Notes under the pieces: model-generated
What the model was told of the DNA's origin: nothing
Database searches by the model: none
What the model saw: the letters and a program-made list of their open reading frames with translations, nothing else
In this document: piece by piece, positions 5,626 to 20,327 of the stretch
Layout: each line of letters starts with the position of its first letter
How positions within the stretch are numbered: position 1 is the first letter of the stretch
Position numbers and translations under genes: made by a program
NCBI GenBank assembly: GCA_045532295.1
Contig: JAZSFP010000004.1
Coordinates: forward strand, 796 to 24,795
Reading direction: 5' to 3'
DNA from: Pumilibacteraceae bacterium
Lineage (GTDB): Bacteria > Bacillota > Clostridia > Christensenellales > Pumilibacteraceae
Length of the DNA stretch: 24,000 nt

Positions 5626-5630
5626 AAAAA

Positions 5631-5665
5631 AACCTCAAGTTTTTACGCTTGAGGTTTTCTTTTTA
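5631..5665. terminator. Bidirectional rho-independent terminator between convergent genes
   Basis: AACCTCAAG (5631-5639) pairs with CTTGAGGTT (5648-5656) around an 8 nt loop. An A-run precedes it and TTTTCTTTTT follows. It ends the minus-strand train after the gamma subunit gene and the plus-strand unit from the left. Confidence 0.8.
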
Positions 5666-6196
5666 TTAGTAATTATAACCGAGCATTACTGCTTTGAGGT
5701 TTATTTCGATAAGGTCGGCTTTCTTGGGGGGAACGACTTTTTTCATAGCCTCTTCTAAGCCCTCGATAGAAACGACGCCACTCTCTTTGATGACTTTGCC
5801 GAGCATAATCATATTAGCGAGGGTGGGCGCGCCCATATCCTTCGCCATTTTGGTAGCGGGAATATAGAAAGCGTTAACGTCTTCTCTTGCCACTTTTCTT
5901 TCTATAAGCGTGCTATCAACGACGATTACCGAGCCTGCAACCGCCTCGTTTTCGTATTTATCGAGCGAGGGAAGGTTCATTGCGATTAAGATATCGGGGT
6001 TAGACACGATGGGCGAGCCAACGGGTTCGTCGGAAATGATGATACTGCAGTTTGCCGTACCGCCACGCATTTCAGGACCGTAAGAGGGCAACCAACTTAC
6101 TTGCTTATCCTCGAAAAGTCCCTTGTACGCCAAGAACTTACCTGCAAAGAGTACGCCTTGACCGCCAAAGCCTGCAATTAAGATTTGTTTCGTCAT
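5666..6196 (-). CDS. 2-oxoacid:ferredoxin oxidoreductase, gamma subunit (VOR/KOR type)
   Basis: 176 aa with the N-terminal [14 protein letters not shown] motif typical of OFOR gamma subunits. It is the last gene of the delta-alpha-beta-gamma cluster. Confidence 0.85.
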
Positions 6197-6200
6197 AGTC

Positions 6201-6953
6201 TTAGTCCTCCTTCTTCGCGCTTCTGTCCTTGTAAACGCCTAAGGGATAATAGGGGAGCATTTTCTCCTCTACCCACTCAAGCGCCTTTTGAGGCGTCATA
6301 CCCCAGTTGGTAGGGCAAGAAGAAACGACTTCGATAAGCGAAAAGCCTTTGCCTTCAACTTGGTTACGGAACGCTTTAAGGATTGCCTTTTTAGCGTTCT
6401 TTACGTTTTTAACGGAGTTAACTGCAACGCGCTCAATATATTCAGGACCGTCCAAGGTTGCGAGCATTTCGCTAACTCTAATGGGGAAGCCCTGCGTTGC
6501 GGTATCACGACCGTAGGGGGAGGTTTGCGTTACCTGACCGGGAAGGGAGGTAGGCGCCATTTGTCCGCCCGTCATACCGTAGATAGCGTTGTTTACGAAG
6601 ATAATCGTGATATTCTCGCCTCTGGTTGCTGAGTGTACCGTTTCCGCCATACCGATAGAGGCAAGGTCGCCGTCGCCTTGGTAAGTAAATACGATATTTT
6701 CGGGCATACAGCGTTTAAGTCCCGTTGCAACCGCGGGCGCGCGTCCGTGAGCCGCCTCTAACATATCGCAAGTAAAGTAGTCGTAAGCCATAACCGCGCA
6801 ACCAACGGGCGCAACGCCAATGGTCTTACCTTCAATGCCAAGTTCTTCAATAGCCTCCGCTACGAGACGGTGAATAATACCGTGAGTACAGCCCGGGCAG
6901 TAATGCAAGGGCGTATCGGTGAGCGTAGAGGGTTTTTTAAATACGATAGCCAT
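6201..6953 (-). CDS. 2-oxoacid:ferredoxin oxidoreductase, beta (TPP-binding) subunit
   Basis: 250 aa with CPGCTHG and the TPP motif GDGDLASIG...NNAIYGMTGGQ. Its ATG overlaps the alpha subunit stop (TAATG), and AAGGAGG lies within the alpha 3' end. Confidence 0.9.
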   Translation of the reverse strand: MAIVFKKPSTLTDTPLHYCPGCTHGIIHRLVAEAIEELGIEGKTIGVAPVGCAVMAYDYFTCDMLEAAHGRAPAVATGLKRCMPENIVFTYQGDGDLASIGMAETVHSATRGENITIIFVNNAIYGMTGGQMAPTSLPGQVTQTSPYGRDTATQGFPIRVSEMLATLDGPEYIERVAVNSVKNVKNAKKAILKAFRNQVEGKGFSLIEVVSSCPTNWGMTPQKALEWVEEKMLPYYPLGVYKDRSAKKED

Positions 6954-8014
6954 TATTTAACCTCCTTCGACATCTTTTCGATGCTTGCAAGCACCTCGTC
7001 GGGCGAGGGCAACATACCACCCGTTCTGCTCGTGAGCCATACGGGGCGTTTGCACTCGGTCGCAAGGCGAATATCTTCAATCATTTGACCCATAGAAAGT
7101 TCTACGGAAATAAAGCCTTTAACCTGCTCTGCGGTCTTTTTCAAAACTTCGGTGGGGAAAGGCCAAAGCGTAATGGGGCGAATAAGTCCCACTTTTACGC
7201 CTTTCTTTCTCGCTGCGGTTACCGCGTTTTTGGAAATTCTTGCCGCGATACCGAACGCTACTACGCAGTACTCCGCGTCGTCCATCATATAACTTTCGTA
7301 TAAAACTTCGTCCTTATGGATTTTAGCGTACTTTTCAAAGCGTTCAATATTCGTCTTTTCCAAAATCTCGGGTTTAAGATAGAGCGAATTGATAATATTA
7401 TGCTTTCTCTCGCCCTTAGTTCCGTTAGCAGCCCAAGGCTTTTCAACGGGCGTAGAATTACTCTCGGGGATAGAAACGGGCTCCATCATTTGTCCCATAG
7501 TTCCGTCTGCAAGTAGCATTACGGGCATACGGTATTTGTCCGCTAAGTCGAACGCCTTAATCGTATAGTCCGCCATCTCTTGAACGGAGGCAGGGGCAAG
7601 CACTATAAGATGATAGTCGCCGTGTCCACCGCCCTTGGTCGCTTGGAAGTAGTCCGACTGCGAGGGCTGAATACCACCAAGACCGGGACCGCCACGCTGA
7701 ACGTTGACGATAAGCGCGGGAAGGTCTGCGCCGGCTATGTAGGAAATACCCTCTTGTTTAAGGGAAATTCCGGGGCTTGAAGAGGAAGTCATTACTCTAA
7801 AGCCTGCGCCTGCAACGCCGTAAACCATATTGATTGCGGAAACTTCGCTCTCAGCCTGCAAGAATACTCCACCGATTTTGGGCATACGCTTAGCCATATA
7901 AGCGGCAATCTCCGTTTGAGGCGTGATGGGATAACCAAAGTAGTGTCTGCAACCTGCTTTAATAGCCGCTTCCGCTATCGCCTCGTTACCTTTCATTAAA
8001 ACTTTTTCAGCCAT
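6953..8014 (-). CDS. 2-oxoacid:ferredoxin oxidoreductase, alpha subunit
   Basis: 353 aa. The N-terminus reads KGNEAIAEAAIKAGCRHYFGYPITPQTEI, followed by the internal motif VQRGGPGLGG, both typical of OFOR alpha subunits. Confidence 0.9.
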   Translation of the reverse strand: MAEKVLMKGNEAIAEAAIKAGCRHYFGYPITPQTEIAAYMAKRMPKIGGVFLQAESEVSAINMVYGVAGAGFRVMTSSSSPGISLKQEGISYIAGADLPALIVNVQRGGPGLGGIQPSQSDYFQATKGGGHGDYHLIVLAPASVQEMADYTIKAFDLADKYRMPVMLLADGTMGQMMEPVSIPESNSTPVEKPWAANGTKGERKHNIINSLYLKPEILEKTNIERFEKYAKIHKDEVLYESYMMDDAEYCVVAFGIAARISKNAVTAARKKGVKVGLIRPITLWPFPTEVLKKTAEQVKGFISVELSMGQMIEDIRLATECKRPVWLTSRTGGMLPSPDEVLASIEKMSKEVK

Positions 8015-8026
8015 AATTCGTTCTCC

Positions 8027-8233
8027 TTATCTTTCCACCGTAATCGCGCAGTCGGGACACATCGTAGCGCAGAAAGCGCAACCGATACACGCCTCTTGGT
8101 TGATAACCTCCGCAGGCGAGTGTCCTTTCGCGTTGAGGACGGTCTTGCTAAGTTCAATAATCTTCTTTGGGCAAGCGTGAACGCAAAGTCCACAACCCTT
8201 GCACACGTTTACTTCAATCGTAACTTTTGCCAT
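8027..8233 (-). CDS. 2-oxoacid:ferredoxin oxidoreductase, delta subunit (2x[4Fe-4S] ferredoxin)
   Basis: 68 aa with two CxxCxxCxxxCP motifs (CKGCGLCVHACP and CIGCAFCATMCP). Confidence 0.9.
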   Translation of the reverse strand: MAKVTIEVNVCKGCGLCVHACPKKIIELSKTVLNAKGHSPAEVINQEACIGCAFCATMCPDCAITVER

Positions 8234-8237
8234 TGTC

Positions 8238-8894
8238 TTACTCCTTAATATCGTAATATTTGCTTTGAAGGACGAGGGGGAACGCTCCCTCCATTTCCAC
8301 GGCAGAAGTCGTGAAAAGCACCTTTAGTCCCGTCAAAGCGGAAAGTCTTTCGCACTCGTCTTTAGTCGCTAAGATATCGTTTGCGGTAGTCTCGTCGCCG
8401 AGGTTAGAGTTGTTGATGATTGCGGTGAACTTGATTTTGCACGCGCTCTCAATCTCACGCATAACCTCGATAGCGTCCTCCGCCGTTCTCGTTAGCGGAC
8501 GATAAAAGTTAGCCACGAAACACATTTCGTAATTGTTTTCTTCTAAAATATAGGGGGTATATCTTCCCAGCGCGTACGCTCCTCTATCGTCGCCACCGAC
8601 GTCAATTATTGCAACCGTATTGCGATTTTGGAACATTGAGTACGCTTCGGGAGGAAGGGAAGGAAGGTCTACGTTAGTGTTAGCGAAAGCAGGAAGAATA
8701 ACTTTTACGCCCTTCTCCACTAACTCTCTTTCGCTATCCGCCGAGCGAAAATAGGGGTTGACGATATCAAGGTCAGCGAGCGTTACCGCTTTCCCCTCGC
8801 CCTTTAGCGCGAGCGCGAGGTTGACCGCAATATTCGTTTTTCCGCTACCGTAATGCCCTGCGATTATATAGACGCGCTTGTCTACGCCTTGCAT
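8238..8894 (-). CDS. P-loop NTPase of the MinD/ParA/CooC-like (SIMIBI) type, function unknown
   Basis: 218 aa with Walker A GHYGSGKT at residues 13-20, then LADLDIVNP and the Walker-B-like AIIDVGGDD. It overlaps the ilvE 3' end by 13 nt, which suggests translational coupling. Confidence 0.7.
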   Translation of the reverse strand: MQGVDKRVYIIAGHYGSGKTNIAVNLALALKGEGKAVTLADLDIVNPYFRSADSERELVEKGVKVILPAFANTNVDLPSLPPEAYSMFQNRNTVAIIDVGGDDRGAYALGRYTPYILEENNYEMCFVANFYRPLTRTAEDAIEVMREIESACKIKFTAIINNSNLGDETTANDILATKDECERLSALTGLKVLFTTSAVEMEGAFPLVLQSKYYDIKE

Positions 8895-9961
8895 ACCTTA
8901 CACATCCAGCCGTGAGTATCCTCTACCTTGCCCCACTGAATACCCGTTAAGTTGTCGTAGAGTTTTTGAGTGAGCGCGCCGATTTCGTTATTCGATACGG
9001 TGTACTCAACGCCGTCGTAGAAGAGTTTGCCGATGGGCGAAACGACTGCCGCCGTTCCCGTTCCCCAAGCCTCTTCAAGTTTGCCTTCTTTTGCCGCGGT
9101 AAAGAGTTCGTCGACGGAGAAAAGGCGTTCTTCAACCTCGTAGCCCCACTCTTTGAGAAGTTCTACGCAAGACTTTCTGGTAATACCGGGAAGAACCGAG
9201 CCGGTGAGCGCAGGCGTGATAATCTTTCCGTCCACTTTGAACATTACGTTCATACTGCCTACTTCTTCGATATACTTTCTGTCTACGCCGTCAAGCCAAA
9301 GAACTTGGGTATAACCGTTCTCTTCCGCTCTCTTGCCTGCTCTAAGGGAGGCTGCGTAGTTACCACCGCACTTAGCGTAACCCGTACCACCGCGAACCGC
9401 TCTGACGTCGCTTTGCTCGATAGCGATTTTAACGGGGTTAATGCCCTCTGCGTAGTACGCGCCAACGGGCGAGCAGATTACCACGAACATAGCCTCGTGT
9501 ACTGCGTGAACGCCAAGGTGTGGGTCGTTACCGTACATATAGGGACGAAGGTAAAGGGAAGTTCCCTCGCTGTGAGGAACCCAGTCCTTTTCCACTTCTA
9601 CGATAGTCTTTAAGATATCAAGGCAAGCCTCTTCGTCGATTTGGGGCAAGCAAAGACGCTCCGCGCTATTGTTGAGACGGCGAATATTCTCTAAAGGACG
9701 GAACATTGCAATCTCGTTTTGGGCAGTTCTATAAGCCTTCATACCCTCGAAAATCTCCGCGCCGTAGTGAAGAACGGTGGACGCTGGATGAACGGGGATA
9801 GGCGCGAAAGGTACGATTTGAGCGTCGTACCAGCCCTTGTCCTCCGACCACTTCATAATAAACATATGGTCGGTAAACACTCTACCAAAACCCAGTTTGC
9901 TCTCGTCTTGAGGTTTTTGCTTGGGACTTGTCGTCTTAGTAATTTTAATATCGAATTTCAT
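8882..9961 (-). CDS. ilvE: Branched-chain-amino-acid aminotransferase (fold-type IV)
   Basis: 359 aa with FEGMKAYR, SLYLRP, GTGYAKCGGNYAASL, LPGITR and GTAAVVSPI. AGAGAGG lies 8 nt upstream of the ATG. Only 29 nt separate it from the upstream ligase gene, and that gap has no hairpin. Confidence 0.9.
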   Translation of the reverse strand: MKFDIKITKTTSPKQKPQDESKLGFGRVFTDHMFIMKWSEDKGWYDAQIVPFAPIPVHPASTVLHYGAEIFEGMKAYRTAQNEIAMFRPLENIRRLNNSAERLCLPQIDEEACLDILKTIVEVEKDWVPHSEGTSLYLRPYMYGNDPHLGVHAVHEAMFVVICSPVGAYYAEGINPVKIAIEQSDVRAVRGGTGYAKCGGNYAASLRAGKRAEENGYTQVLWLDGVDRKYIEEVGSMNVMFKVDGKIITPALTGSVLPGITRKSCVELLKEWGYEVEERLFSVDELFTAAKEGKLEEAWGTGTAAVVSPIGKLFYDGVEYTVSNNEIGALTQKLYDNLTGIQWGKVEDTHGWMCKVCKA

Positions 9962-9990
9962 AATATATACCTCTCTAAAAATAGTATAAT

Positions 9991-12285
9991 CTATAATTTA
10001 TTTCTTTGGATTTTACCCGAAGTCGTCTTGGGAAGTTCGTCGCGGAATACGACTACTCTGGGGTACTTATAAGGCGCGGTGCGTTCTTTAACGTAGGCTT
10101 GGATTTCCTTTTTGAGTTCTTCCGTGCCCTCCGTTCCCTTAACGAGCACTATGCTCGCCTTAACTACTTGACCGCGAACCTCGTCGGGCTGAGCGGAAAC
10201 GCCACACTCAAGCACGTAGGGAAGTTCCATAATGACGTTCTCGATTTCAAAAGGTCCGATGCGGTAACCAGACGACTTAATAACGTCGTCAACGCGTCCT
10301 ACGTACCAGTAATAGCCGTCCTCGTCGCGCCAAGCGGTGTCGCCCGTATGGTAATATCCGTCGTGCCAACACTCCGCCGTCTTTTCCTCGTCGTCGTAGT
10401 AGCCCACGAACAAGCCGTTGGGTTTGCCGTGCTCGGTCTTGATACAGATTTCGCCCACTTCGCCCACCGCGGTAGGTTTGCCGTCGGCGTCGAGAAGTTT
10501 AATGTCGTATAGGGGTACGGGCTTACCCATTGAGCCAAGGCGCGAGGTCGTGCCTGCAAGGTTAGCAAGCGCAACGGTGGTTTCCGTTTGACCAAAGCCC
10601 TCCATAATCTGAAGTCCCGTTGCCTTTTCAAACTGACGGAAAACTTCGGGGTTGAGCGCCTCGCCGGCAGTTGACATATGCTCGATTGAGGAAAGGTCGA
10701 AGTTGGAAAGGTCTTGCTTTATCATCATTCTAAGCATAGTCGGGGGAGCACAGAAAGTGGTTATATGGTACTTTGCGAACATAGGCATAATGTCGTTTGC
10801 GTCGAAACGGTCAAAGTCGTAAACGAACAGTCCCGCCTCGCAAAGCCATTGTCCGTAAAGTTTACCCCACGCTGCCTTTGCCCAACCCGTGTCGGATATG
10901 GTAAGGTGTAGTCCGTCGGGGTTTACCGAGTGCCAGTACTTTGCGGTTATAAAGTGTCCTAAGGGGTACTTGTAGTTGTGCATAGCAATCTTGGGATTGC
11001 CGGTAGTACCCGAGGTAAAGTACATAAGCATTATATCGTCTCCGCAAGGAGCGTCCTCGCCTCTTTCAAGTTTGCCCGTATAGAGCGTATACTCTTCGTC
11101 GAAGGTTCTCCAGCCCTCACGCTTGCCGTTGACCATAATGATATGCTCGAGCGAGGGAGCGTTCTCTTTTGCCTTTTCCACCTCGAAAGACACTTCGCCG
11201 TCAGCGGTACAAAGGATTGCTTTTACGCCCGCTTTGTTAAGACGGTAAGTAATATCGTGCTCTTTAAGTTGGTTGGTAGCGGGGATTGCGATTGCGCCGA
11301 TCTTGTGAAGAGCGACCATAGCGAACCAGAACTGATAGTGGCGTTTGAGGATAAGCATTACCCTATCGCCTTTCTTAATTCCAAGCGCCTTGAAGTAGTT
11401 TGCGCACTGGTTAGAGGCGCGTTTAAGGTCGTGGAAAGTAATTCTTCGCTCCGTTTTGTCGTTCGATATATGCATAAGCGCGGTCTTGTCGGGGTCTTTG
11501 TCCGCAATAGCGTCCACCACGTCAAAGCCGAAGTTAAAGGTATCGTCGTTTCTAAAGGATATGGAAGTAGGTACTCCTCTCCCGTCCTCGGTAGTCGTGA
11601 TATACTTTTCCCAAACGCGTTTTCCCTCGTCCTTTTTCTTGGGAGGCGCGAACACCACGTCGGGCTCGTTGATTTTTGCGTGGGTAATGGTAGAAACGGA
11701 CTCGCGAGCAGGGTTAAGAACGAACGCGTAGAACACGCAGTCTGCGTTGTCCACCGCTATCATACCGTGAGGAACGGAACTGTCGTAGTAAATGCTGTCG
11801 CCCTCGCGGAGAATTTCGATATGATTTCCTACCTGTACTTTTAACGCGCCCGATACTACCACGTCGCACTCTTGTCCTTCGTGCGAGGTTAGTTCTATGG
11901 GCTTATTTTGTTGGAGAGGGTCGTACGAGGACACTACGAACAACGGCTCGGCAATTCTGTTCTTAAAGGCGGAGGCGAGGTTATAGTAAACCATACCGTG
12001 AGCCTTTTGAATTTCTTGACCTTCGCCCTTTCGCGTTACCGTGTATCCTGCAAGTCGAGGACCGCTACCGTCGATAATTTCGGTTACGTCAACCTTTAAA
12101 GCGGCTGCGCAACGGTACAAAAAGGCAAAGTTAAGGTCGCTACTACCGTTCTCGCAAGAGGCGTACTCTTCTTCGCTTACGCCCGTCTTTTGCGCCATTT
12201 CTTCAATCGAAAGTCCTTCGATTTCACGCAAAGTGCGAATACGCTGTGCCATCTCCATTATTTTGCTTTCTAAACTGTTAAACAT
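9991..12285 (-). CDS. Fusion protein: XRE-type HTH + cupin + AMP-forming acyl-CoA synthetase (medium-chain/ACSM-like), paralog 1 (Val T-box controlled)
   Basis: 764 aa counted from ATG 12285 (AGGAG 6 nt upstream); the track's extra 14 codons lie in the leader. The HTH is RIRTLREIEGLSIEEMAQKTGVSEEEYASCENG. The cupin is HEGQECDVVVSGALKVQVGNHIEILREGDSIYYDSSVPHGM. Ligase motifs are FTSGTTGNPK, SDTGW, GFGQTET, YHTGD, SSGYRIGPFEIE and PKTTSGKIQR. Confidence 0.85.
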   Translation of the reverse strand: MFNSLESKIMEMAQRIRTLREIEGLSIEEMAQKTGVSEEEYASCENGSSDLNFAFLYRCAAALKVDVTEIIDGSGPRLAGYTVTRKGEGQEIQKAHGMVYYNLASAFKNRIAEPLFVVSSYDPLQQNKPIELTSHEGQECDVVVSGALKVQVGNHIEILREGDSIYYDSSVPHGMIAVDNADCVFYAFVLNPARESVSTITHAKINEPDVVFAPPKKKDEGKRVWEKYITTTEDGRGVPTSISFRNDDTFNFGFDVVDAIADKDPDKTALMHISNDKTERRITFHDLKRASNQCANYFKALGIKKGDRVMLILKRHYQFWFAMVALHKIGAIAIPATNQLKEHDITYRLNKAGVKAILCTADGEVSFEVEKAKENAPSLEHIIMVNGKREGWRTFDEEYTLYTGKLERGEDAPCGDDIMLMYFTSGTTGNPKIAMHNYKYPLGHFITAKYWHSVNPDGLHLTISDTGWAKAAWGKLYGQWLCEAGLFVYDFDRFDANDIMPMFAKYHITTFCAPPTMLRMMIKQDLSNFDLSSIEHMSTAGEALNPEVFRQFEKATGLQIMEGFGQTETTVALANLAGTTSRLGSMGKPVPLYDIKLLDADGKPTAVGEVGEICIKTEHGKPNGLFVGYYDDEEKTAECWHDGYYHTGDTAWRDEDGYYWYVGRVDDVIKSSGYRIGPFEIENVIMELPYVLECGVSAQPDEVRGQVVKASIVLVKGTEGTEELKKEIQAYVKERTAPYKYPRVVVFRDELPKTTSGKIQRNKL

Positions 12286-12353: not shown

Positions 12354-12626
12354 ACAAAAAACGCTCGTCTCAAAAAATCATCTTTGAGACGAGCATACTT
12401 TTCCGTATTACCCGCGGTACCACTCAAATTGCGCAAGCGCGCCACCTCAGGCTCAAACAAGCCGTAGACTTTTACGCAGTCGTCACGGGAAGGTTCTAAT
12501 AGGGCGAGCGCCCGTTCTTCCTTCCGACTCGGAAGTTACAGTTCTTTTCTCACTTTAACGGTTCACACCTTCGTCCGTCTCTCTGAAAAGTTACCCAAAA
12601 AGAACACTCTTCGTCACAGTCTTTAC
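12354..12626 (-). promoter_or_regulatory. T-box riboswitch leader, specifier GUA (Val)
   Basis: Read on the minus strand. GA/K-turn: GACT-GTGAC-GAAG pairs with CTTC-CGA-GTC. AG bay: AGAGAG. Distal stem ACGG/CCGT has a loop containing GGTGTGA. Specifier loop: GAAC-U-GUA-A-CUUC, with the codon at the complement of 12537-12539. T-box motif: AATTTGAGTGGTACCGCGGG (complement of 12411-12430). Terminator: GCTCGTCTCAA/TTGAGACGAGC (12363-12394) plus GTTTTTTGT. TTTGAG of the T-box can pair with CTCAAA of the terminator 5' arm to form the antiterminator. Confidence 0.9.
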
Positions 12627-12632
12627 GGGGCA

Positions 12633-12661
12633 ATTATACCATTTTTAATATGGTTTGTCAA
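12633..12661 (-). promoter_or_regulatory. Consensus SigA-type promoter of the Val T-box unit
   Basis: Minus strand: TTGACA (12661-12656), a 17 nt spacer, then TATAAT (12638-12633) preceded by TGg (extended -10). It starts 45 nt downstream of the paralog-2 stop codon. Confidence 0.85.
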
Positions 12662-12706
12662 CGATTTTTCAAAGGTTTCTTACATTATTTATACTATACT
12701 ATATAA

Positions 12707-14974
12707 TTATAATTTATTTCTTTGGATTTTACCCGAGATAGTCTTGGGCAGTTCGTCGCGGAAGACTACGATACGGGGGTACTTATAGGGCGCGGTATGG
12801 GACTTAACGTAGGCTTGGATTTCCTTTTTAAGTTCTTCCGTTCCCACCGTTCCTTTGGTTAAAACTACGCTCGCCTTAACTACCTGACCACGAATATCGT
12901 CGGGCTCGGGGGACACGGCGCACTCAAGCACGTAGGGAAGTTCCATAATAACGCTCTCGATTTCAAAAGGTCCGATGCGGTAGCCAGACGACTTGATAAC
13001 GTCGTCTTTACGGCTAACGTACCAAAAATATCCGTCCTCGTCGCGCCAAGCGGTGTCGCCCGTGTGGTAAACGCCGTCGTGCCAAGCGTCAGCGGTAAGG
13101 TCTTCCGCTCTGTAATATTCCTTGAAAAGTCCACAGGGAACGGACTCGTCGGTATGGATAACGATTTCGCCCGTCTCACCGTTGGGAAGAGAATTGCCCT
13201 CGTCGTCCACGATATCCACTCTGTACTGGGGCGACGCTTTACCCATCGAGCCGATTTTGGGCGTCGTTCCGCGGAGGTTACAGATAGTAAGCGTGGTTTC
13301 CGTTTGGCCAAAGCCCTCCATAATCTTAAGCCCCGTAGCGTGCTCGAACTGACGGTAAACCTCGGGGTTGAGCGCCTCGCCTGCCGTGGTCATATGATGA
13401 ACGGAGGAAAAATCGTACTTTCCAAGGTCGCTCTTTATGAACATTCTGAGCATAGTTGGGGGAGCGCAGAAGGTCGTGATTTGGTACTTTGCGAACATAG
13501 GAAGGATTTCCTCTGCCTTGAAGACGTCGAAGTCGTAAACGAACACCGCGCCTTCGCAAAGCCATTGACCGTACAGTTTGCCCCAGAGCGATTTGCCCCA
13601 GCCCGTATCGGAAATGGTAAAGTGTAGTCCGTCGCGCTCGCAGTTATGCCAGTATTTAGCGGTAACGTAATGTCCAAGCGCGTAGGTGTGCTTGTGAGCC
13701 GCCATTTTAGGATTGCCCGTCGTTCCAGAAGTGAAGAACATAAGCGCGGTATCCTCGCCGGCAGAGGCGTTCTCTGCGCGGTCGAACTTGCTCGAAAAAC
13801 GCGTGTACTCTTCGTTAAAGTTATGCCAGCCCTCTTTTTCGCCGTTGACGAGCAACTTAACTTCCACGGAAGGACAGTTCTTCGACGCGCGCTCGGCAAT
13901 GTCGGAAACGTCGCCGTCGGCAGTACAAACGATAGCCTTTACGCTCGCTGCGTTAAAGCGGTATTCAAAGTCGTGCTCTTTGAGTTGGTTGGTAGCAGGG
14001 ATTGCGACCGCGCCGATTTTATGAAGAGCGACCATAGCGAACCAGAACTGATAATGGCGTTTAAGCACGAGCATTACCTTATCCCCTCTCTTAATTCCAA
14101 GCGAGAGGAAGTAGTTCGCGCACTGGTTAGAGGCTTTTTTGATATCCTTAAAGGTAAATCTGCGCTCCGTTAAATCACGGCTTATATGGAGCATAGCAAG
14201 TTTATCGGGGTACTTATTCGCAATCTCGTCCACAACGTCAAAGCCGAAGTTAAAGGTGTCGGTATTCTTGAACTTAATGTCGGTAAGAGTGCCGTTCTCG
14301 TCCTCGGTGGTCTCGACGAACTTCTCGCAAATAAGTTCCTCGGACTCCTGATGCGCCACTACGCTCTTTCTTACTACCTCTTCCTTGGTGTCCTCGCCGG
14401 GAAGAACTACCGCGCAGAACACGCAGTCGCGTCCGCCGATTGCTATCATACCGTGAGGGGTGGACGAATTATAGTAAATGCTGTCGCCCTCGTTAAGAAT
14501 TTCCGTATGCTCGCCGATTTGTACTTTAAGCGAACCCTCTAAAACGAGGTCGAACTCTTGACCGCCGTGGGTGGTAAGGTGGATAGGCTTATTCTGTTGC
14601 GACGCAGAATACTCGTATCTTACCCAGTAAGGCTGAGCAATTTTATCGCGGAACTTGGGCGCAAGGTTCTTAATGTCGATGCCCTCTTCTTTAGCCGTCG
14701 ACTGTCCCTGTCCCTTTCTCGTTACCGTATAAGAAGATAGGTTCGCAGCGTTACCTTCAAGAAGTTCGGTAAGTTCTACGCCGAAAACTAACGCGCATTT
14801 ATGAATAAATGAAAAGGGAATATCTATTCGACCAGACTCGTATTTAATGTAATCGCTCTCGCTAACTTCAGCGCGATTTGCCATTTCCGATACCGAAAAT
14901 CCCATTACGTTACGCATTTCTTTGATACGCTGGGCAACTTCCGTCAGTCTGTTCATAGTGTTCTTGTCTTCCAT
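12707..14974 (-). CDS. Fusion protein: XRE-type HTH + cupin + AMP-forming acyl-CoA synthetase, paralog 2 (Ile T-box controlled)
   Basis: 755 aa counted from ATG 14974 (AAGGAG 9 nt upstream). The track's extra 43 codons run through the T-box terminator. The architecture and motifs match paralog 1 (FTSGTTGNPK, SDTGW, GFGQTET, YHTGD, SSGYRIGPFEIE, PKTISGKIQR), and both share the C-terminal end SGKIQRNKL. Confidence 0.85.
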   Translation of the reverse strand: MEDKNTMNRLTEVAQRIKEMRNVMGFSVSEMANRAEVSESDYIKYESGRIDIPFSFIHKCALVFGVELTELLEGNAANLSSYTVTRKGQGQSTAKEEGIDIKNLAPKFRDKIAQPYWVRYEYSASQQNKPIHLTTHGGQEFDLVLEGSLKVQIGEHTEILNEGDSIYYNSSTPHGMIAIGGRDCVFCAVVLPGEDTKEEVVRKSVVAHQESEELICEKFVETTEDENGTLTDIKFKNTDTFNFGFDVVDEIANKYPDKLAMLHISRDLTERRFTFKDIKKASNQCANYFLSLGIKRGDKVMLVLKRHYQFWFAMVALHKIGAVAIPATNQLKEHDFEYRFNAASVKAIVCTADGDVSDIAERASKNCPSVEVKLLVNGEKEGWHNFNEEYTRFSSKFDRAENASAGEDTALMFFTSGTTGNPKMAAHKHTYALGHYVTAKYWHNCERDGLHFTISDTGWGKSLWGKLYGQWLCEGAVFVYDFDVFKAEEILPMFAKYQITTFCAPPTMLRMFIKSDLGKYDFSSVHHMTTAGEALNPEVYRQFEHATGLKIMEGFGQTETTLTICNLRGTTPKIGSMGKASPQYRVDIVDDEGNSLPNGETGEIVIHTDESVPCGLFKEYYRAEDLTADAWHDGVYHTGDTAWRDEDGYFWYVSRKDDVIKSSGYRIGPFEIESVIMELPYVLECAVSPEPDDIRGQVVKASVVLTKGTVGTEELKKEIQAYVKSHTAPYKYPRIVVFRDELPKTISGKIQRNKL

Positions 14975-15042: not shown

Positions 15043-15315
15043 CTAAAAAACCCATCTCAATGATTCTAACATTGAGACGGGTTAAAATAACTCGCGGTAC
15101 CACTCAACTTGCATAAAAAATTATGCCACTTATCAGGTTCAAACAAACCCTACGCACTAACGCAGCGGACTCGGAAAGCGCCTACTAAAGCAATCGCTCT
15201 TTGGGGCTTTCGGCTCGGAAGTGATAGGTCTTGCGGACTCTTCGTTTATCGGTTCTCAGCAACCCGACTCTCTGGAAAACTATTTATCCAACCGTCTTCG
15301 TCACAGCCTTTATAT
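15043..15315 (-). promoter_or_regulatory. T-box riboswitch leader, specifier AUC (Ile)
   Basis: Read on the minus strand. GA/K-turn: GGCT-GTGAC-GAAG pairs with CTTC-CGA-GCC. AG bay: AGAGAG. Distal stem TCGG/CCGA has a loop containing GCTGAGA. Specifier loop: GACC-U-AUC-A-CUUC, with the codon at the complement of 15223-15225. T-box motif: AAGTTGAGTGGTACCGCGAG (complement of 15091-15110). Terminator: ACCCGTCTCAATG/CATTGAGATGGGT (15050-15082) plus TTTTTTAGG. Confidence 0.9.
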
Positions 15316-15321
15316 GCGCCT

Positions 15322-15350
15322 ATTATAGCACTACGCTTTTTCTTTGTCAA
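15322..15350 (-). promoter_or_regulatory. Consensus SigA-type promoter of the Ile T-box unit
   Basis: Minus strand: TTGACA (15350-15345), a 17 nt spacer, then TATAAT (15327-15322) preceded by TGc. It begins 30 nt after the amidohydrolase stop. Confidence 0.85.
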
Positions 15351-15379
15351 CGATTTTACAAGGGTTTTTTAAATTTTTT

Positions 15380-16174
15380 TTACAAGTTTTTCAAGTTAAA
15401 TACCCTTATTGCGTTCTTGTAAAAAATCTGCTCTCTCTCCTCTTCGGTTAAGCCCAAAGCGTTAAAGCGCGCCATTTCCTCGTCAATCTTCCACATAGGA
15501 AAATCGGTAGCGAAAAGCACTCTTTGTGCGCCGTACTTTCTTATAACGGCGGTAGCGGTTTGAGGGGAAATCATTGCAAGCGAACTTGAACAATCCACGA
15601 AAACCTGCTTATAGGGCGCAAGTTTTTCCACCGCCTCTTCCCAAACGGAATATCCGCCGAGGTGCGCGGCAATTACCGTAAGATTTGGGAAACGCTCCAA
15701 AACGCTTATGAGGTTTTCGGGGTTAGAATAATTGTAACGGCTATCGCCTGCGTGGATAAGCAAGGGAATTTTGCCCTCGATTGCGCGGTAAATCTTGTCG
15801 CATCGTGGGTCGTCAAGCGCGATTGCTTGAATATCGGGGTGGAGTTTTACGCCGTGAAGATTGAGCGATATAATCTCTTCCACTTCGCTTTCCACCTCTT
15901 CGCTATCGGGGTGGAGCGTTCCAAGTCCGATAAAGCGGTCGGGACGGCTTTTAACCATATCCGCAATAAAGTGGTTTATGGATCGGACTTGCGAGGGCTT
16001 AGTTGCAACGGAGAAAATAACGGAGTGCGTTACGCCGTTCTTCTCACTCTCGCTTATAAGCGTTTCCACTCGTCCGTCGTAGTCCATCGGGATAGAATAG
16101 AACTTGCCTATGCTCTCCACTGCTTTTTCAACGATTTTCTCGGGGTAAATATGGCAATGACAGTCGATAATCAT
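15380..16174 (-). CDS. TIM-barrel metal-dependent hydrolase (amidohydrolase-2 / COG2159-like)
   Basis: 264 aa with N-terminal IIDCHCH (HxH metal motif), later HLGG and FATDFP. It is the last gene of the Leu T-box unit, starting 4 nt after the upstream stop. Confidence 0.7.
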   Translation of the reverse strand: MIIDCHCHIYPEKIVEKAVESIGKFYSIPMDYDGRVETLISESEKNGVTHSVIFSVATKPSQVRSINHFIADMVKSRPDRFIGLGTLHPDSEEVESEVEEIISLNLHGVKLHPDIQAIALDDPRCDKIYRAIEGKIPLLIHAGDSRYNYSNPENLISVLERFPNLTVIAAHLGGYSVWEEAVEKLAPYKQVFVDCSSSLAMISPQTATAVIRKYGAQRVLFATDFPMWKIDEEMARFNALGLTEEEREQIFYKNAIRVFNLKNL

Positions 16175-16177
16175 ACC

Positions 16178-18631
16178 TTACCCCTTTATGCCGAGCATTT
16201 CCACGCTCTGCTCTTTCATCTTATATTTAAGAATTTTGCCCGCAGCGTTCATCGGGAATTCTTTGACGAACACGAAGTAACGGGGTACTTTGTGTTTAGC
16301 CATATTAGCGTTACCGTACTCGCGCATTTCCGCCTCGTCCGCCGTTTCGCCTTTTTTAAGGATTATCCAAGCGCAACATTCTTCGCCGTATCTCTCGTCG
16401 GGAACGCCCACTACTTGCACGTCGCGAACTTTTTGGTGAGTAAGATAGAACTCTTCAATCTCGCGAGGATAGAGGTTTTCGCCACCGCGAATAATCATAT
16501 CTTTAAGTCTGCCCGTAACCTTATAGTATCCGTCCGCAGTTTTGCAACAGATATCTCCGCTATGGAGCCAGCCTTCTCTATCAATCGCCTCGCTGGTTGC
16601 TTTGGGCATTTTGTAATAGCCTTTCATTATATTATAACCGCGCGCAACGAACTCGCCGTTCTCACCGTCGGGAACTTCCTCGCCCGTTTCGGGGACGATA
16701 ACCTTACACTCAACGCCGGGGAAAGCCGAGCCTACCGTTTCCACTCTATGCTCTTCGTCCTCGTTGACTTCGCCCATAGTGCACCCGGGGCTTGCCTCGG
16801 TCTGACCGTAAACGCTGATTATCTCGCGCATATTCATTTCCGCCGACGCTCTGCGCATAAGGTCTGCCGGACAGTTCGCCCCTGCCATTATTCCCGTTCG
16901 CATATACGAAAAGTCCGTTTTAGCAAAGTCGGGGTGGTTGAACATAGCGATAAACATCGTGGGAACGCCGTTAAAGGCGGTAATATGCTCGTCGTTTACG
17001 CAAGCAAGCGAACTTTTTGGCGAGAAGTAGGGCATAGGACACATAGTTACGCCGTGCGTCATACTGTTCGTCATTGAAAGCACCATACCAAAGCAATGGA
17101 ACATAGGTACTTGTATCATCATTCTGTCCGCCGTGGACATATCCATTCTGTCGCCTATGATTTTACCGTTGTTGACGATATTGCGATGAGTGAGCATTAC
17201 GCCTTTAGGAAAGCCCGTAGTACCCGAAGTGTACTGCATATTGCACACGTCGTCGGGGCGAACGAGCGCGGCGCGTCTTCTAACCTCTTCGTCAGGAACG
17301 AGAACGCTCCTCTTCATAAAGTCTTCCCACTCTAAGCATCCGTCCATATTAAAGCCTACCGTTATTACGTTGCGAAGGAAAGGCAAGGTCTTTGAGTAAA
17401 GGGGCTGGGCGGGGGTTAAATTTTTAAGTTCGGGACAAAGTTCTTCGATTATTTCTTTATAGTTACTGTCCTTGCAACTGTCAATCATAACGAGCGTATG
17501 CGTGTCGGACTGACGGAGGAGGTACTCTGCCTCGTGGATTTTATAAGCGGTATTAACCGTAACGAGAACCGCGCCGATTTTTACCGTCGCCCAGAAGGTA
17601 AGATACCACTGAGGAATATTCGTCGCCCAAATTGCCACGTGGTGTCCGGGGCGCACGCCAAGGGATATAAGTGAGGCGGCTACTTTATCCACTTCGTCAC
17701 GGAATTCGCGATAGGTACGCGTATAATCGTGCGTGGTATACTTAAAAGCGTACTGGTCGGGATAATGCTCTACCATAGTGTCGAGAACCTCGGAAAAGGT
17801 AAGGTCGAGAACTTCGTACTTTTTCCAAGGGTGCGTTCCGCTCTTATCTCTATTATAGAAAATTTCCTTGGGTTTTGCGCTCGCCCGTTCAATCGAACTC
17901 ATAAAACTTTCAAAGTGCGTGAGCAAAATATCGGGGTTAGTAACCTCGCCGGCGGAAAGCGCGCAGATATAACCGTCGTAGTTAAGGGAACGGAGCGCGC
18001 TTATAAACTCGCCTACGGGCAGTTCGCCCTCGCCCATAAGCGTGTCTTCGCCATCAAGCATATCGCCGATTTTAACGTACTCAATGTACGCGCCCAAAGT
18101 CTGAATAGTGCGGTCGGCAGTCTCTTTCGCTCTAAAGAAGGTCTCGCGGATATTCCAGCACACCTTTACCGACGCCGAGCCCAGCATACCTATAACGCCC
18201 AAGATTTTCTCAGTGTGAGCAAGCGCGTTCGCCGTCTCTATTAAAATATCAACGCCGTACTCTTCCGCCGTCTTTATTACAGGGGTAAAGATTTCCTTGA
18301 TTTTTTCCTCCGTAATTTCGCCAAAGGTAACCACGACGCCCGGAGCAGTTACGCGTCCTGCTTGCTTAATCGTTTCGATAATATCCTGAGGGTTGGTGTT
18401 TTGGTCGATAATCTTGGGATAGCCCACTACCGCTATGGCAATTCTGCGGTTGATAAGTTTGCGCTTTTGGTCAACGGTAAGTTCCTCGCGGAAAATACTG
18501 TCCGCGTGCGCGCTAATCTGTTCTTCTATCGACGATATTTCAAAGCCCGAAAACCCGTAATGCGCCGTAGCGGTGCAAAGTTCAAGGAAACTTTTAGTGG
18601 GTACGAGCGAAGTAGAAAATGCAAGTTTCAT
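16178..18631 (-). CDS. Fusion protein: xylose-isomerase-like TIM barrel (N-terminal ~250 aa) + AMP-dependent acyl-CoA ligase (FadD/ACSF2-like)
   Basis: 817 aa. The N-terminal part (GFSGFEIS...VVVTFG...DILIETAN...VCWNIRETF...YVKIGD...GELPVGEFISALRSLNYDGYI) looks like the AP-endonuclease-2/xylose-isomerase fold. The C-terminal part has YTSGTTGFPKGVMLTH, YGQTE, LHSGD, RGGENLYPREIE and AAGKILK. The 471-aa plus-strand ORF at 15662-17077 is an antisense shadow. Confidence 0.8.
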   Translation of the reverse strand: MKLAFSTSLVPTKSFLELCTATAHYGFSGFEISSIEEQISAHADSIFREELTVDQKRKLINRRIAIAVVGYPKIIDQNTNPQDIIETIKQAGRVTAPGVVVTFGEITEEKIKEIFTPVIKTAEEYGVDILIETANALAHTEKILGVIGMLGSASVKVCWNIRETFFRAKETADRTIQTLGAYIEYVKIGDMLDGEDTLMGEGELPVGEFISALRSLNYDGYICALSAGEVTNPDILLTHFESFMSSIERASAKPKEIFYNRDKSGTHPWKKYEVLDLTFSEVLDTMVEHYPDQYAFKYTTHDYTRTYREFRDEVDKVAASLISLGVRPGHHVAIWATNIPQWYLTFWATVKIGAVLVTVNTAYKIHEAEYLLRQSDTHTLVMIDSCKDSNYKEIIEELCPELKNLTPAQPLYSKTLPFLRNVITVGFNMDGCLEWEDFMKRSVLVPDEEVRRRAALVRPDDVCNMQYTSGTTGFPKGVMLTHRNIVNNGKIIGDRMDMSTADRMMIQVPMFHCFGMVLSMTNSMTHGVTMCPMPYFSPKSSLACVNDEHITAFNGVPTMFIAMFNHPDFAKTDFSYMRTGIMAGANCPADLMRRASAEMNMREIISVYGQTEASPGCTMGEVNEDEEHRVETVGSAFPGVECKVIVPETGEEVPDGENGEFVARGYNIMKGYYKMPKATSEAIDREGWLHSGDICCKTADGYYKVTGRLKDMIIRGGENLYPREIEEFYLTHQKVRDVQVVGVPDERYGEECCAWIILKKGETADEAEMREYGNANMAKHKVPRYFVFVKEFPMNAAGKILKYKMKEQSVEMLGIKG

Positions 18632-18633
18632 AG

Positions 18634-19992
18634 TTATTTTTCCTCGTGTACGATTTTGTTAAGGGCGTTTACGTACGCGCGAACGCACGCTCCGATAATG
18701 TCGGTTGAAACGCCGTTGCCGGGGTAAAGTTTTCCGTTAGCGCGAAGTCTAATGATGGCCGAGCCTACCGCCTCTCTGCCTTTCGTGATTGCGGAAATGC
18801 GGAAGTCGTCAAGTTCGTAATGGTGTCCTACGACCTGCTCAATTGCGTGGAACACCGCGTCGATAGGACCGTCGCCCGTGCTTACTCCGCTAAAACGCTC
18901 GCCGTTCTTCTCAAGCGTTACGTTCGCAGTCGCCGAAATTATGCTACCGCTGTTTACAACGTAACTAACGAGGTGATAGGTAGAAGGCGCTTGCATAGCG
19001 GTGGAGGCGATTACTGCCTCAAGTTCACGCTTGTCAACCGACTTTTTGCGAACGGTAAGACGCTTAAATTCGTCGTAAACCTTGCCCGTGTCCTCGTCCG
19101 TAAGTTCGTATCCAAGCGATTTTATTACCGCGCTAACCTCAGAAAGCGTGCTTGAAGAGGAAAGTTTAACCGTCTTTTCCTCCTCCTCGCTCTCTTTTTC
19201 CGTTACCGCGCTTGCTTGCTCGCTAATGTTTTTAATGGAAGTGATATCAATGTTTGCGCTCGCGTTGAGCGTACCGCCCTTTGCTCTAATAACCTCGGCA
19301 AAAACCGCTGGGCGAAGGAACGCTCCGCTAATGGAAGTTACCACACCGTCCGCGCCACTCTCAATAGCCTTAATAGCGTTCGCGCTCGCTAAAGAAAGAG
19401 CGTCCGAGGGACAAGCAATGACGGAAATTTTCGATACCGTATTGATTTTTTCGAGCATTTTTGCGTAATCTTCGGGAAAAGCCTCGCCTGCCTCGTCGTA
19501 AATAATTACTCCGCTTGCGCCCTTCTCTTCTACCGCTTTAACGCACTTTTCGATAAAGCCTTCCTCCGCTCTAAAAGCGTCGGTGAGCATAACGAAAACC
19601 TCACTACATTTTGCTTTTGCGCACTCGGTAAGCAACGCTATTTTTTCAAGCATAGCCGAGGCTTTAAGATGATATTTGTACTCCATAGTCGCAGTGGAAA
19701 CGGGCATAGACACTACGAGCGCAGGGGCAACCGCTCCCTTAACGCAAGCATAGGCGCGCTCTATTCCCTTTTCGCTATCGCCTACCTCTACGGCAACTTT
19801 TGCGTTTTTAACGGACTCAGCGAGCGTTTTGTAGATTACTTCGCTCTCTTTACTAACGCCGGGGAAAGGCAAATAAATAATATCCACTCCGCTCTTGTCA
19901 AGTAGCGCGCATAGGTTTAGTCTTTCACGGAAGGTAAAGTTTTCCTTCTCAATGGTCTTGAGCGTTGCGTCTATAGTAATGATTTTTTTCAT
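18634..19992 (-). CDS. 2-isopropylmalate-synthase-like protein (DRE-TIM barrel + LeuA C-terminal regulatory domain) with non-canonical active-site residues
   Basis: 452 aa with AGGAGG 9 nt upstream of the ATG. It is collinear with LeuA, but IDATLKTIEKE replaces FDTTLRDGEQ and SVIACPSDALSLASANAIKAIESGA replaces [23 protein letters not shown]. The C-terminus (GVSTGDGPIDAVFHAIE...ISAITKGREAVGSAIIRL...GNGVSTDIIGACVRAYVNALNK) matches the LeuA dimerisation and Leu-binding domain pattern. Confidence 0.75.
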   Translation of the reverse strand: MKKIITIDATLKTIEKENFTFRERLNLCALLDKSGVDIIYLPFPGVSKESEVIYKTLAESVKNAKVAVEVGDSEKGIERAYACVKGAVAPALVVSMPVSTATMEYKYHLKASAMLEKIALLTECAKAKCSEVFVMLTDAFRAEEGFIEKCVKAVEEKGASGVIIYDEAGEAFPEDYAKMLEKINTVSKISVIACPSDALSLASANAIKAIESGADGVVTSISGAFLRPAVFAEVIRAKGGTLNASANIDITSIKNISEQASAVTEKESEEEEKTVKLSSSSTLSEVSAVIKSLGYELTDEDTGKVYDEFKRLTVRKKSVDKRELEAVIASTAMQAPSTYHLVSYVVNSGSIISATANVTLEKNGERFSGVSTGDGPIDAVFHAIEQVVGHHYELDDFRISAITKGREAVGSAIIRLRANGKLYPGNGVSTDIIGACVRAYVNALNKIVHEEK

Positions 19993-20019: not shown

Positions 20020-20292
20020 ATAAACAAAACCCGCAGATGAGAAGATTTCCTTCTCTTCTGCGGGATGATTACAAAGAACCACGGTACCACCCGTCATTGC
20101 CGTAAAATACGACCTCTTATAGAACTCCAACAAGTCCGTTCGCTATAACGGGCGCGCCCGTAATTCCTTACTATAAGTTCCGGAATTCCGCTCCGATACG
20201 AGACTGCTATCCCGTCCGCCCGTTATCTCGCACCAACCGATAACTCTCTGAAGGGTTTTTGACGACACGCATAATATCTTCACAGCGTTTAT
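20020..20292 (-). promoter_or_regulatory. T-box riboswitch leader, specifier CUC (Leu)
   Basis: Read on the minus strand. GA/K-turn: CGCT-GTGAA-GATA pairs with TATC-GGA-GCG. AG bay: AGAGAG. Distal stem TTATC/GATAA has a loop containing GGTGCGA. Specifier loop: GCAG-U-CUC-G-UAUC, with the codon at the complement of 20200-20202. T-box motif: AATGACGGGTGGTACCGTGG (complement of 20079-20098). Terminator: CCCGCAGAAGAGAAG/CTTCTCATCTGCGGG (20030-20064, one mismatch) plus TTTTGTTTAT. Confidence 0.9.
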
Positions 20293-20298
20293 GGTGGT

Positions 20299-20327
20299 AT
20301 ATTATCATTTTTGAAAAAATATGTCAA
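20299..20327 (-). promoter_or_regulatory. SigA-type promoter of the Leu T-box unit
   Basis: Minus strand: TTGACA (20327-20322), a 17 nt spacer, then TAATAT (20304-20299). Confidence 0.75.

Follow-up and report, generated by a model that had tools for sequence, protein, structure and literature searches.

A T-box leader with a valine specifier precedes an operon predicted to make valine from isobutyrate in a Pumilibacteraceae bacterium

A 24-kb stretch of DNA from a Pumilibacteraceae bacterium (assembly GCA_045532295.1, contig JAZSFP010000004.1, positions 796 to 24,795; hereafter the window) carries on its minus strand a T-box leader RNA with a valine specifier. The leader is followed by an operon encoding a fused acyl-coenzyme A (acyl-CoA) synthetase, the branched-chain aminotransferase IlvE and a 2-oxoacid:ferredoxin oxidoreductase. 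Our interpretation is that uncharged tRNA-Val switches on the synthesis of valine from isobutyrate, and we put the probability of this statement as a whole at about 0.7. Taken by itself, the leader is very likely a functional, valine-specific T-box riboswitch that attenuates transcription.

The Rfam covariance model for T-boxes, RF00230, aligns to the leader over its entire length, with all model positions from 1 to 219 placed on nucleotides 12626..12382 of the minus strand at 75.4 bits. The match is far above chance, the E value being 1.7e-16 when 651 nt are searched and 6.3e-15 for the full 24 kb. The covariance search, which had been proposed in an earlier note on this DNA, thus returned a full-length match, though one below the RF00230 gathering score of 93. 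An extra helix and long loops account for the low bit score. As an RNA, the leader is an ordinary class I T-box plus one extra hairpin. It has the same architecture as canonical class I leaders, such as those of Bacillus subtilis valS and ilv-leu, in which an antiterminator with a UGGN bulge is opposed to an intrinsic terminator and a purine follows the specifier. It differs from them in the covarying hairpin inserted before Stem III and in its sub-gathering score.

All hallmark elements that the earlier note had described, namely the promoter, kink-turn (K-turn), AG bay, distal loop, T-box motif, terminator and antiterminator, were found on the minus strand at the positions where it had placed them (Table 1). 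The promoter scores 12/12 with TG. Only one other perfect match was found in the 15.4 kb covered by our promoter and terminator scan, and it lies in front of a second T-box with an isoleucine specifier. Since the 3' arm of the antiterminator lies within the 5' arm of the terminator (12394..12383), the two folds overlap and are mutually exclusive. Folded as terminator, the 3' domain reaches -29.2 kcal/mol, compared with -13.3 kcal/mol for the antiterminator alone. This large difference in stability implies that the antiterminator needs to be stabilised by tRNA, as is usual in T-boxes.

The fold is supported by comparative evidence. Relatives of the downstream fusion protein occur in at least 591 species-level genomes. 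We analyzed the best 80 of them, which are metagenome-assembled Oscillospiraceae, Acutalibacteraceae and 'Clostridia' originating from ruminant and human guts. A T-box core precedes the orthologous gene in 80 of 80 cases, and a promoter of the form TTGACAA...TGnTATAAT is also present 5' of orthologous leaders. Covariation was assessed in an alignment of 49 leaders, A2. From this alignment RNAalifold recovered Stem I, Stem II, the additional hairpin and the terminator, with compensatory double changes in 38 of 60 pairs. In addition, we performed a controlled pair count on a hand-specified architecture comprising Stem I, Stem II, the extra hairpin and the antiterminator, the controls being 3' partners slid by 1–3 columns and 500 column shuffles. 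It turned out that 93.9% of the cells were paired, as opposed to 34–55% with slid partners, and that 34 of the 47 tested pairs displayed compensatory changes. For four of five measures none of the 500 shuffles reached the observed value, and for the fifth a single shuffle did.

Individual elements follow the same pattern. Stem I helices are 78–99.5% paired, with compensatory changes at all inner-helix pairs, and both AGAGA of the AG bay and GGUG of the distal loop are invariant (49/49 leaders). Helix 6 of Stem II is 99.3% paired and shows compensatory changes at all six of its pairs. The extra hairpin (helix 8), which is not part of the RF00230 consensus, is 96.9% paired, with compensatory changes at five of six pairs; this hairpin elaborates the T-box in a clade-specific manner and is partly responsible for the score below threshold. 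Further downstream, the T-box sequence AAUUUGAGUGGUACCGCGGG is invariant, antiterminator helices 9 and 10 are 100% paired and almost invariant, and the upper three pairs of the terminator covary according to RNAalifold. RNAalifold also proposed a long-range pairing between CUGCG in the IIA/B region (A2 columns 215–219, ~12479..12475) and CGCGG in the 3' half of the T-box sequence (columns 301–305, 12415..12411). Both sides are almost invariant, and the pairing could be spurious or could represent an alternative conformer. This pairing and a small hairpin within the T-box sequence, being invariant or weak, were dropped from the tested structure.

The identity of the amino acid is given by the specifier, and the covariance-model alignment places GUA (12539..12537) in the specifier columns. 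The same triplet serves as specifier in the valS leader of B. subtilis. When 81 orthologous species-level leaders were aligned with MAFFT, this position was occupied by GUA in 78 cases, GUC in two and GUG in one, that is, exclusively by Val codons differing in the third position alone. The earlier note had read GUA as a valine specifier and had named CUG or UGU in the specifier columns as the outcome that would speak against it. Both the placement by the covariance model and the codon counts in the 81 leaders agree with GUA. Moreover, the four-pair helix beneath the specifier loop is 99.5% paired in A2, with compensatory changes at three of its four pairs (GAAG/CUUC, GGAG/CUCC, GGGG/CCCC, AAAG/UUUC), which fixes the register independently of the covariance model.

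Could the leader nevertheless read a non-Val tRNA in another register, for example Cys through UGU or Leu through CUG? The window alone, with C-U-G-U-A-A at this site, permits several triplets, and a single sequence cannot decide between them. With the orthologs at hand, such a reading is hardly credible. The base immediately 5' of the triplet may be U, G, A or C, so neither UGU nor CUG is conserved and both registers are excluded; the base immediately 3' is always a purine (G or A), and a triplet shifted by +1 would be the stop codon UAG or UAA. Changes inside the triplet are confined to the third position and retain Val, the closing helix sets the register, and the covariance model itself gives GUA. 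The UGGU bulge, from which an A73 discriminator base had been predicted in the earlier note, is invariant and fits A73. It has no discriminating power, since the Val, Ile and Leu leaders in the window all have UGGU.

The operon controlled by the leader (12285..5666, minus strand) is tightly packed, with intergenic gaps of at most 30 nt, and the terminator of the leader and one behind the final gene are the only strong terminators. Its previously noted content, a synthetase fusion, ilvE and an oxidoreductase, was borne out by Pfam and NCBIfam profiles. The best NCBIfam match of the synthetase domain is MbcS, at 442 bits compared with an equivalog cutoff of 850. Among solved structures, its best relative is PDB 3ETC, which matches over the whole enzyme domain at 609 bits. 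Judged by sequence, the fusion enzyme is an MbcS-like branched short-chain acyl-CoA synthetase, a relative of MbcS and not its ortholog, and we predict that this 764-aa protein is an isobutyrate-CoA ligase. The names it carries in databases are generic: 'AMP-binding protein', 'cupin domain-containing protein' or 'acetyl-CoA synthetase'. As for the oxidoreductase, alpha, beta, gamma and delta subunits are encoded together, which corresponds to the four-subunit type. The alpha subunit has the Pfam domains POR_N and PFOR_II, and its NCBIfam match NF005507 is '3-methyl-2-oxobutanoate dehydrogenase subunit VorB'. The beta, gamma and delta subunits score below their equivalog cutoffs, and the assigned substrate specificity therefore rests on VorB and on context.

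The gene order is conserved. In the 80 related loci, an Ile-type synthetase, the Val-type synthetase, the ATPase and VorD-B-A-C succeed one another, and this arrangement is near-universal where the contig is long enough. IlvE is encoded at either of two places: directly behind the Val-type synthetase in the window and its closest relatives, and after VorC in most others. The fact that ilvE moves and yet stays in the cluster argues for a functional link. Where IlvE follows VorC, a LeuA homolog is often next. The P-loop ATPase gene is always directly upstream of the delta subunit gene in related loci, and in the window its start overlaps the end of ilvE; the ATPase may serve the oxidoreductase as an Fe-S cluster factor or an assembly factor.

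Two sister T-boxes are present upstream on the same strand. The Ile leader (15313..15070) scores 86.7 bits with RF00230, below the gathering score. The specifier reads AUC both here and in its orthologs (65/65 leaders), and the leader controls a paralogous 755-aa fusion protein (14974..12707) that is 62% identical to the Val-type synthetase. The Leu leader (20292..20058, in the region 20058..20327) scores 111 bits and is the sole T-box in the window above the gathering score; its specifier CUC is followed by G. Three genes (19992..15380) lie behind it. The first encodes a divergent LeuA-like protein with HMGL-like and LeuA_dimer domains, scoring below every isopropylmalate synthase cutoff. The second encodes an 817-aa protein, in which a xylose-isomerase-like TIM barrel is fused to a FadD-type acyl-CoA synthetase, and the third a 264-aa protein without an NCBIfam match. 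This operon with the TIM-barrel-synthetase is found upstream in the closest relatives only.

The amino acid identities of the three switches can be compared with the known substrate range of MbcS from Staphylococcus aureus, an ATP-dependent enzyme that prefers isobutyrate and 2-methylbutyrate, acts poorly on isovalerate and is inactive on acetate (PMC10026030). The two preferred substrates match the two MbcS-like paralogs behind the Val and Ile switches, while the Leu switch controls a synthetase of another family. The Ile-linked synthetase fits a route from 2-methylbutyrate to isoleucine. We conjecture that the FadD-type synthetase linked to Leu reflects a need of isovalerate for a different activating enzyme.

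Based on established T-box biology and the anatomy of this leader, we infer the following mechanism. Transcription would start at the strong constitutive promoter, and the nascent Stem I would dock the tRNA elbow on the platform formed by the AG bay and the distal loop, while the specifier GUA would read the anticodon UAC of tRNA-Val. An uncharged tRNA would pair its free NCCA end with the UGGU bulge and stabilise the weak antiterminator, so that polymerase would read through and the whole operon would be expressed. If the tRNA is charged with valine, the terminator would form and transcription would stop at ~12356. The synthetase domain would then convert isobutyrate, ATP and CoA into isobutyryl-CoA, which the four-subunit oxidoreductase, using reduced ferredoxin and CO2, would turn into 2-oxoisovalerate, and IlvE would yield valine by transamination. 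The predicted anabolic direction follows from the logic of the switch, as a response to amino-acid shortage points to synthesis and not to breakdown. It also follows from the type of synthetase, since an AMP-forming enzyme activates acids and does not release them. AMP-forming synthetases spend ATP on this activation, whereas catabolic routes rely on phosphotransacylase and kinase or on ADP-forming enzymes and gain ATP. The habitat of the relatives, as judged from ruminant and human gut metagenomes, fits a branched-acid carboxylation route.

The same RNA, equally real and equally Val-specific, might serve membrane lipids instead. In that case the operon would feed branched acyl-CoA primers to fatty-acid synthesis, with isobutyrate (through the synthetase) and valine (through IlvE and an oxidatively working oxidoreductase) converging on isobutyryl-CoA, as MbcS and Bkd do in S. 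aureus. It is true that 2-oxoacid:ferredoxin oxidoreductases run oxidatively in amino-acid-fermenting Clostridia. Moreover, the nearest named family, MbcS, supplies primers for branched-chain fatty acids (PMC10026030, PMC11167679). We consider this role unlikely, because IlvE and an oxidative oxidoreductase induced by uncharged tRNA-Val would destroy valine just when it is scarce. In addition, the three T-boxes for Val, Ile and Leu follow the demand for amino acids and not for lipids, and domain profiles reveal no fatty-acid synthesis gene in the cluster.

A fully catabolic operon, in which valine would be degraded through 2-oxoisovalerate and isobutyryl-CoA to isobutyrate as an oxidative Stickland branch, would require the leader to be either a degenerate relic or the site of an unconventional response. 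IlvE together with this oxidoreductase does constitute the standard route to branched short-chain acids in gut Clostridia (e.g. bioRxiv 10.1101/401489), and a leader scoring below the Rfam gathering cutoff would be in keeping with decay. This leader is not degenerate, however: its functional motifs are invariant and its helices covary over 49 species, which led us to reject the relic. Furthermore, the AMP-forming synthetase consumes ATP, and inducing the catabolism of an amino acid while starving for it makes no regulatory sense. Taken together, we regard the catabolic alternative as very improbable.

Synthesis of valine from isobutyrate thus remains our preferred interpretation, but several observations weigh against it or against its parts. 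With respect to Rfam the Val leader is a formal miss, and a scan of the window at the gathering threshold lists the Leu leader as the only T-box. Single-sequence minimum free energy folding missed the canonical Stem I, whether Stem I alone or the complete leader was folded, which is why we relied on comparative analysis. Because the antiterminator helices are nearly invariant, covariation speaks neither for nor against them. A tRNA gene search of the 24-kb window found none, and a cognate tRNA-Val(UAC) with A73 is thus assumed. On the enzymatic side, the synthetase substrate is a prediction at a score well under the MbcS cutoff, the oxidoreductase is in principle reversible, and we identified no low-potential electron donor for it. 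The arrangement of the switches poses a problem as well. The terminator scan detected no terminator between the stop of the Ile-type gene at 12707 and the Val promoter at 12661, so that transcription begun at the Ile leader probably runs into the terminator of the Val T-box. The oxidoreductase and IlvE, on which each of the three routes would depend, are placed behind the Val switch only, which is awkward when isoleucine is the only amino acid in short supply. A way out may be provided by basal read-through, by simultaneous limitation for all three amino acids or by gene copies elsewhere.

T-box control of branched-chain amino acid supply and biosynthesis is documented in Clostridia and Bacillales (PMC2494555). 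The target of the Val leader departs from the canonical ones in that it includes no aminoacyl-tRNA synthetase, de novo ilv/leu pathway or transporter, but an acid-activating synthetase, a ferredoxin oxidoreductase and IlvE. The earlier note had called these targets unusual for a T-box. Indeed, neither CoA ligases nor oxidoreductases are among the targets in the 2008 catalogue of T-box-regulated genes (PMC2494555); at the same time, the set of genes would be rational as a salvage route from branched-chain acids to amino acids. Our search of full-text literature revealed no link of T-boxes with acyl-CoA synthetases, with this oxidoreductase or with branched-acid carboxylation, although an earlier mention is possible, as the main 2008 comparative T-box paper (PMC2271356) was outside the search. 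A Geobacter T-box paper concerns the leuA T-box only. The regulon of this T-box is therefore apparently undescribed.

The individual components do have known counterparts. Both MbcS and the 3ETC enzyme, which we take to be the 2-methylbutyrate-preferring enzyme of Methanosarcina acetivorans, are AMP-forming short-chain acyl-CoA synthetases like the one described here. They lack the N-terminal regulator-like module of the fusion protein, and whereas MbcS serves lipid synthesis, the genes around the fusion suggest a role in making amino acids. Both in predicted chemistry and in habitat, the pathway matches reductive carboxylation in rumen anaerobes and methanogens. An anabolic role of 2-oxoisovalerate:ferredoxin oxidoreductase in methanogens was reportedly proposed by Tersteegen et al. 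in 1997. For rumen anaerobes, work by Allison and co-workers from 1966–1971, as cited in PMC7356843, traces three amino acids to the carboxylation of branched acids: isobutyrate gives valine, 2-methylbutyrate gives isoleucine and isovalerate gives leucine. That work was physiological and biochemical; in contrast, here we deal with a defined, conserved operon, in which T-boxes assign one amino acid to each synthetase paralog.

It has been known for sixty years that gut and rumen anaerobes, including cellulolytic ones, need or use isobutyrate, 2-methylbutyrate and isovalerate, partly for making valine, isoleucine and leucine. In Firmicutes, genes for the use of branched acids have been annotated only generically, and RNA sensors of known logic may now label the pathway. 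Read as labels, the specifiers put a Val codon before the synthetase that is accompanied by IlvE and the oxidoreductase, an Ile codon before its paralog and a Leu codon before a third synthetase. Synthetase substrates can thereby be predicted, in a testable form, for at least 591 species-level genomes, and an old physiological question becomes testable at the level of genes. If our interpretation is correct, the T-box regulon extends from de novo synthesis, charging and transport to the salvage of fermentation acids. The anabolic reading of the operon would also matter when levels of branched short-chain acids are interpreted in gut metabolomics and when ruminant feed is supplemented with branched acids.

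A feature of the Val- and Ile-type synthetases that calls for a separate account is their N-terminal module of ~245 residues (11550..12285 in the Val-type gene; also in the Ile-type paralog 12707..14974), which consists of a helix-turn-helix (HTH) and a cupin domain. Residues 11–198 of the 764-aa protein align end to end with the HTH_3-cupin transcriptional regulator PDB 1Y9Q. Mean pairwise identities among orthologs of the Val and Ile clades, respectively, are 72% and 62% for the HTH, 75% and 72% for the cupin, and 81% and 78% for the enzyme domain, while the linker (residues 201–245) has only 45% identity. The HTH and cupin domains are thus nearly as conserved as the enzyme and the linker is poorly conserved, indicating that the module is under selection and suggesting a role in sensing or DNA binding. 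The N-terminus resembles regulators of the 1Y9Q type and PuuR-like HTH-cupin regulators, and the joining of a DNA-binding domain to an adenylate-forming enzyme is reminiscent of BirA. Unlike these regulators and BirA, the fusion protein has no operator that we could find, and its DNA binding is a prediction. When the promoter regions of ~55 orthologous leaders were searched for a conserved palindromic operator, none was identified, the -35 and -10 elements being the only common features, and autoregulation at these promoters is therefore without support. By analogy with BirA, one might speculate about a two-input control of branched-chain acid scavenging, although we consider it rather doubtful. 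In such a scheme, the Leu, Ile and Val T-boxes would sense demand, and the HTH-cupin module of the Ile and Val synthetases would sense supply as part of an enzyme-repressor, with the acid, acyl-adenylate or acyl-CoA as the possible signal. Were this true, the amino acid identity of the T-box would be the key to the substrate specificity of synthetase paralogs in hundreds of uncultured gut species.

Table 1. Features of the Val T-box leader, the operon behind it and the Ile T-box control region (coordinates of the window)
Feature	Coordinates	Strand	Details and evidence
sigma-70-type promoter	12633..12661	-	TTGACA 12661..12656, 17-nt spacer, TGgTATAAT (extended -10), -10 hexamer 12638..12633
T-box leader RNA	12354..12626	-	Stem I, Stem II, IIA/B region, extra helix, Stem III, antiterminator/terminator; RF00230 and covariation
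Stem I	12526..12621	-	K-turn, specifier loop, AG bay, distal loop
K-turn UGA...GA	base helix 12621..12619 with 12528..12526	-	sequence and alignment
Helix GAAG/CUUC closing the specifier loop	12612..12609 with 12535..12532	-	
AG bay CAGAGAG	12585..12579	-	
Distal loop GGUGUGA	12569..12563	-	
Specifier GUA (Val)	12539..12537	-	followed by purine A12536, then CUUC 12535..12532
Stem II with S-turn-like GAAGAA / UAGAA motifs	12486..12525	-	covariation
Extra hairpin GGCUUG...GAGCCU	12449..12463	-	between IIA/B region and Stem III; A2 columns 231–254
T-box sequence AAUUUGAGUGGUACCGCGGG	12430..12411	-	UGGU bulge 12422..12419, partner of tRNA 3' end NCCA
Antiterminator	12384..12427	-	UUGAG/CUCAA and GCGGG/CUCGU around a 7-nt bulge
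Intrinsic terminator of the leader	12356..12394	-	12-bp core stem 12394..12383 with 12374..12363, U6 12361..12356; top-ranked terminator match
HTH(XRE)-cupin-acyl-CoA synthetase, 764 aa	9991..12285	-	ATG 12285 behind AGGAG; Pfam HTH_19, Cupin_2, AMP-binding, AMP-binding_C
IlvE branched-chain amino acid aminotransferase	8882..9961	-	NF009897 481 bits (cutoff 307), TIGR01123 390 bits (cutoff 250)
P-loop ATPase, ParA/Mrp-like, 218 aa	8238..8894	-	always adjoins oxidoreductase genes
Oxidoreductase delta subunit, 2x[4Fe-4S] ferredoxin-like	8027..8233	-	Fer4 domains
2-oxoisovalerate:ferredoxin oxidoreductase, VorB-type alpha subunit	8014..6953	-	NF005507 567 bits (cutoff 399)
Oxidoreductase beta subunit, thiamine pyrophosphate (TPP)-binding	6953..6201	-	Pfam TPP_enzyme_C
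Oxidoreductase gamma subunit	6196..5666	-	Pfam POR
Intrinsic terminator closing the operon	5626..5661	-	5 nt past the last stop codon
Ile T-box promoter	15350..15322	-	perfect, extended -10
Ile T-box terminator	15083..15049	-	

The Val and Ile promoters resemble each other beyond the -35 hexamer as well. On the minus strand, both 12656..12675 and 15345..15364 correspond to AAAATCGTTGACAA, a likeness that is not kept in more distant orthologs. This likeness probably goes back to the tandem duplication from which the two leader-synthetase units arose.

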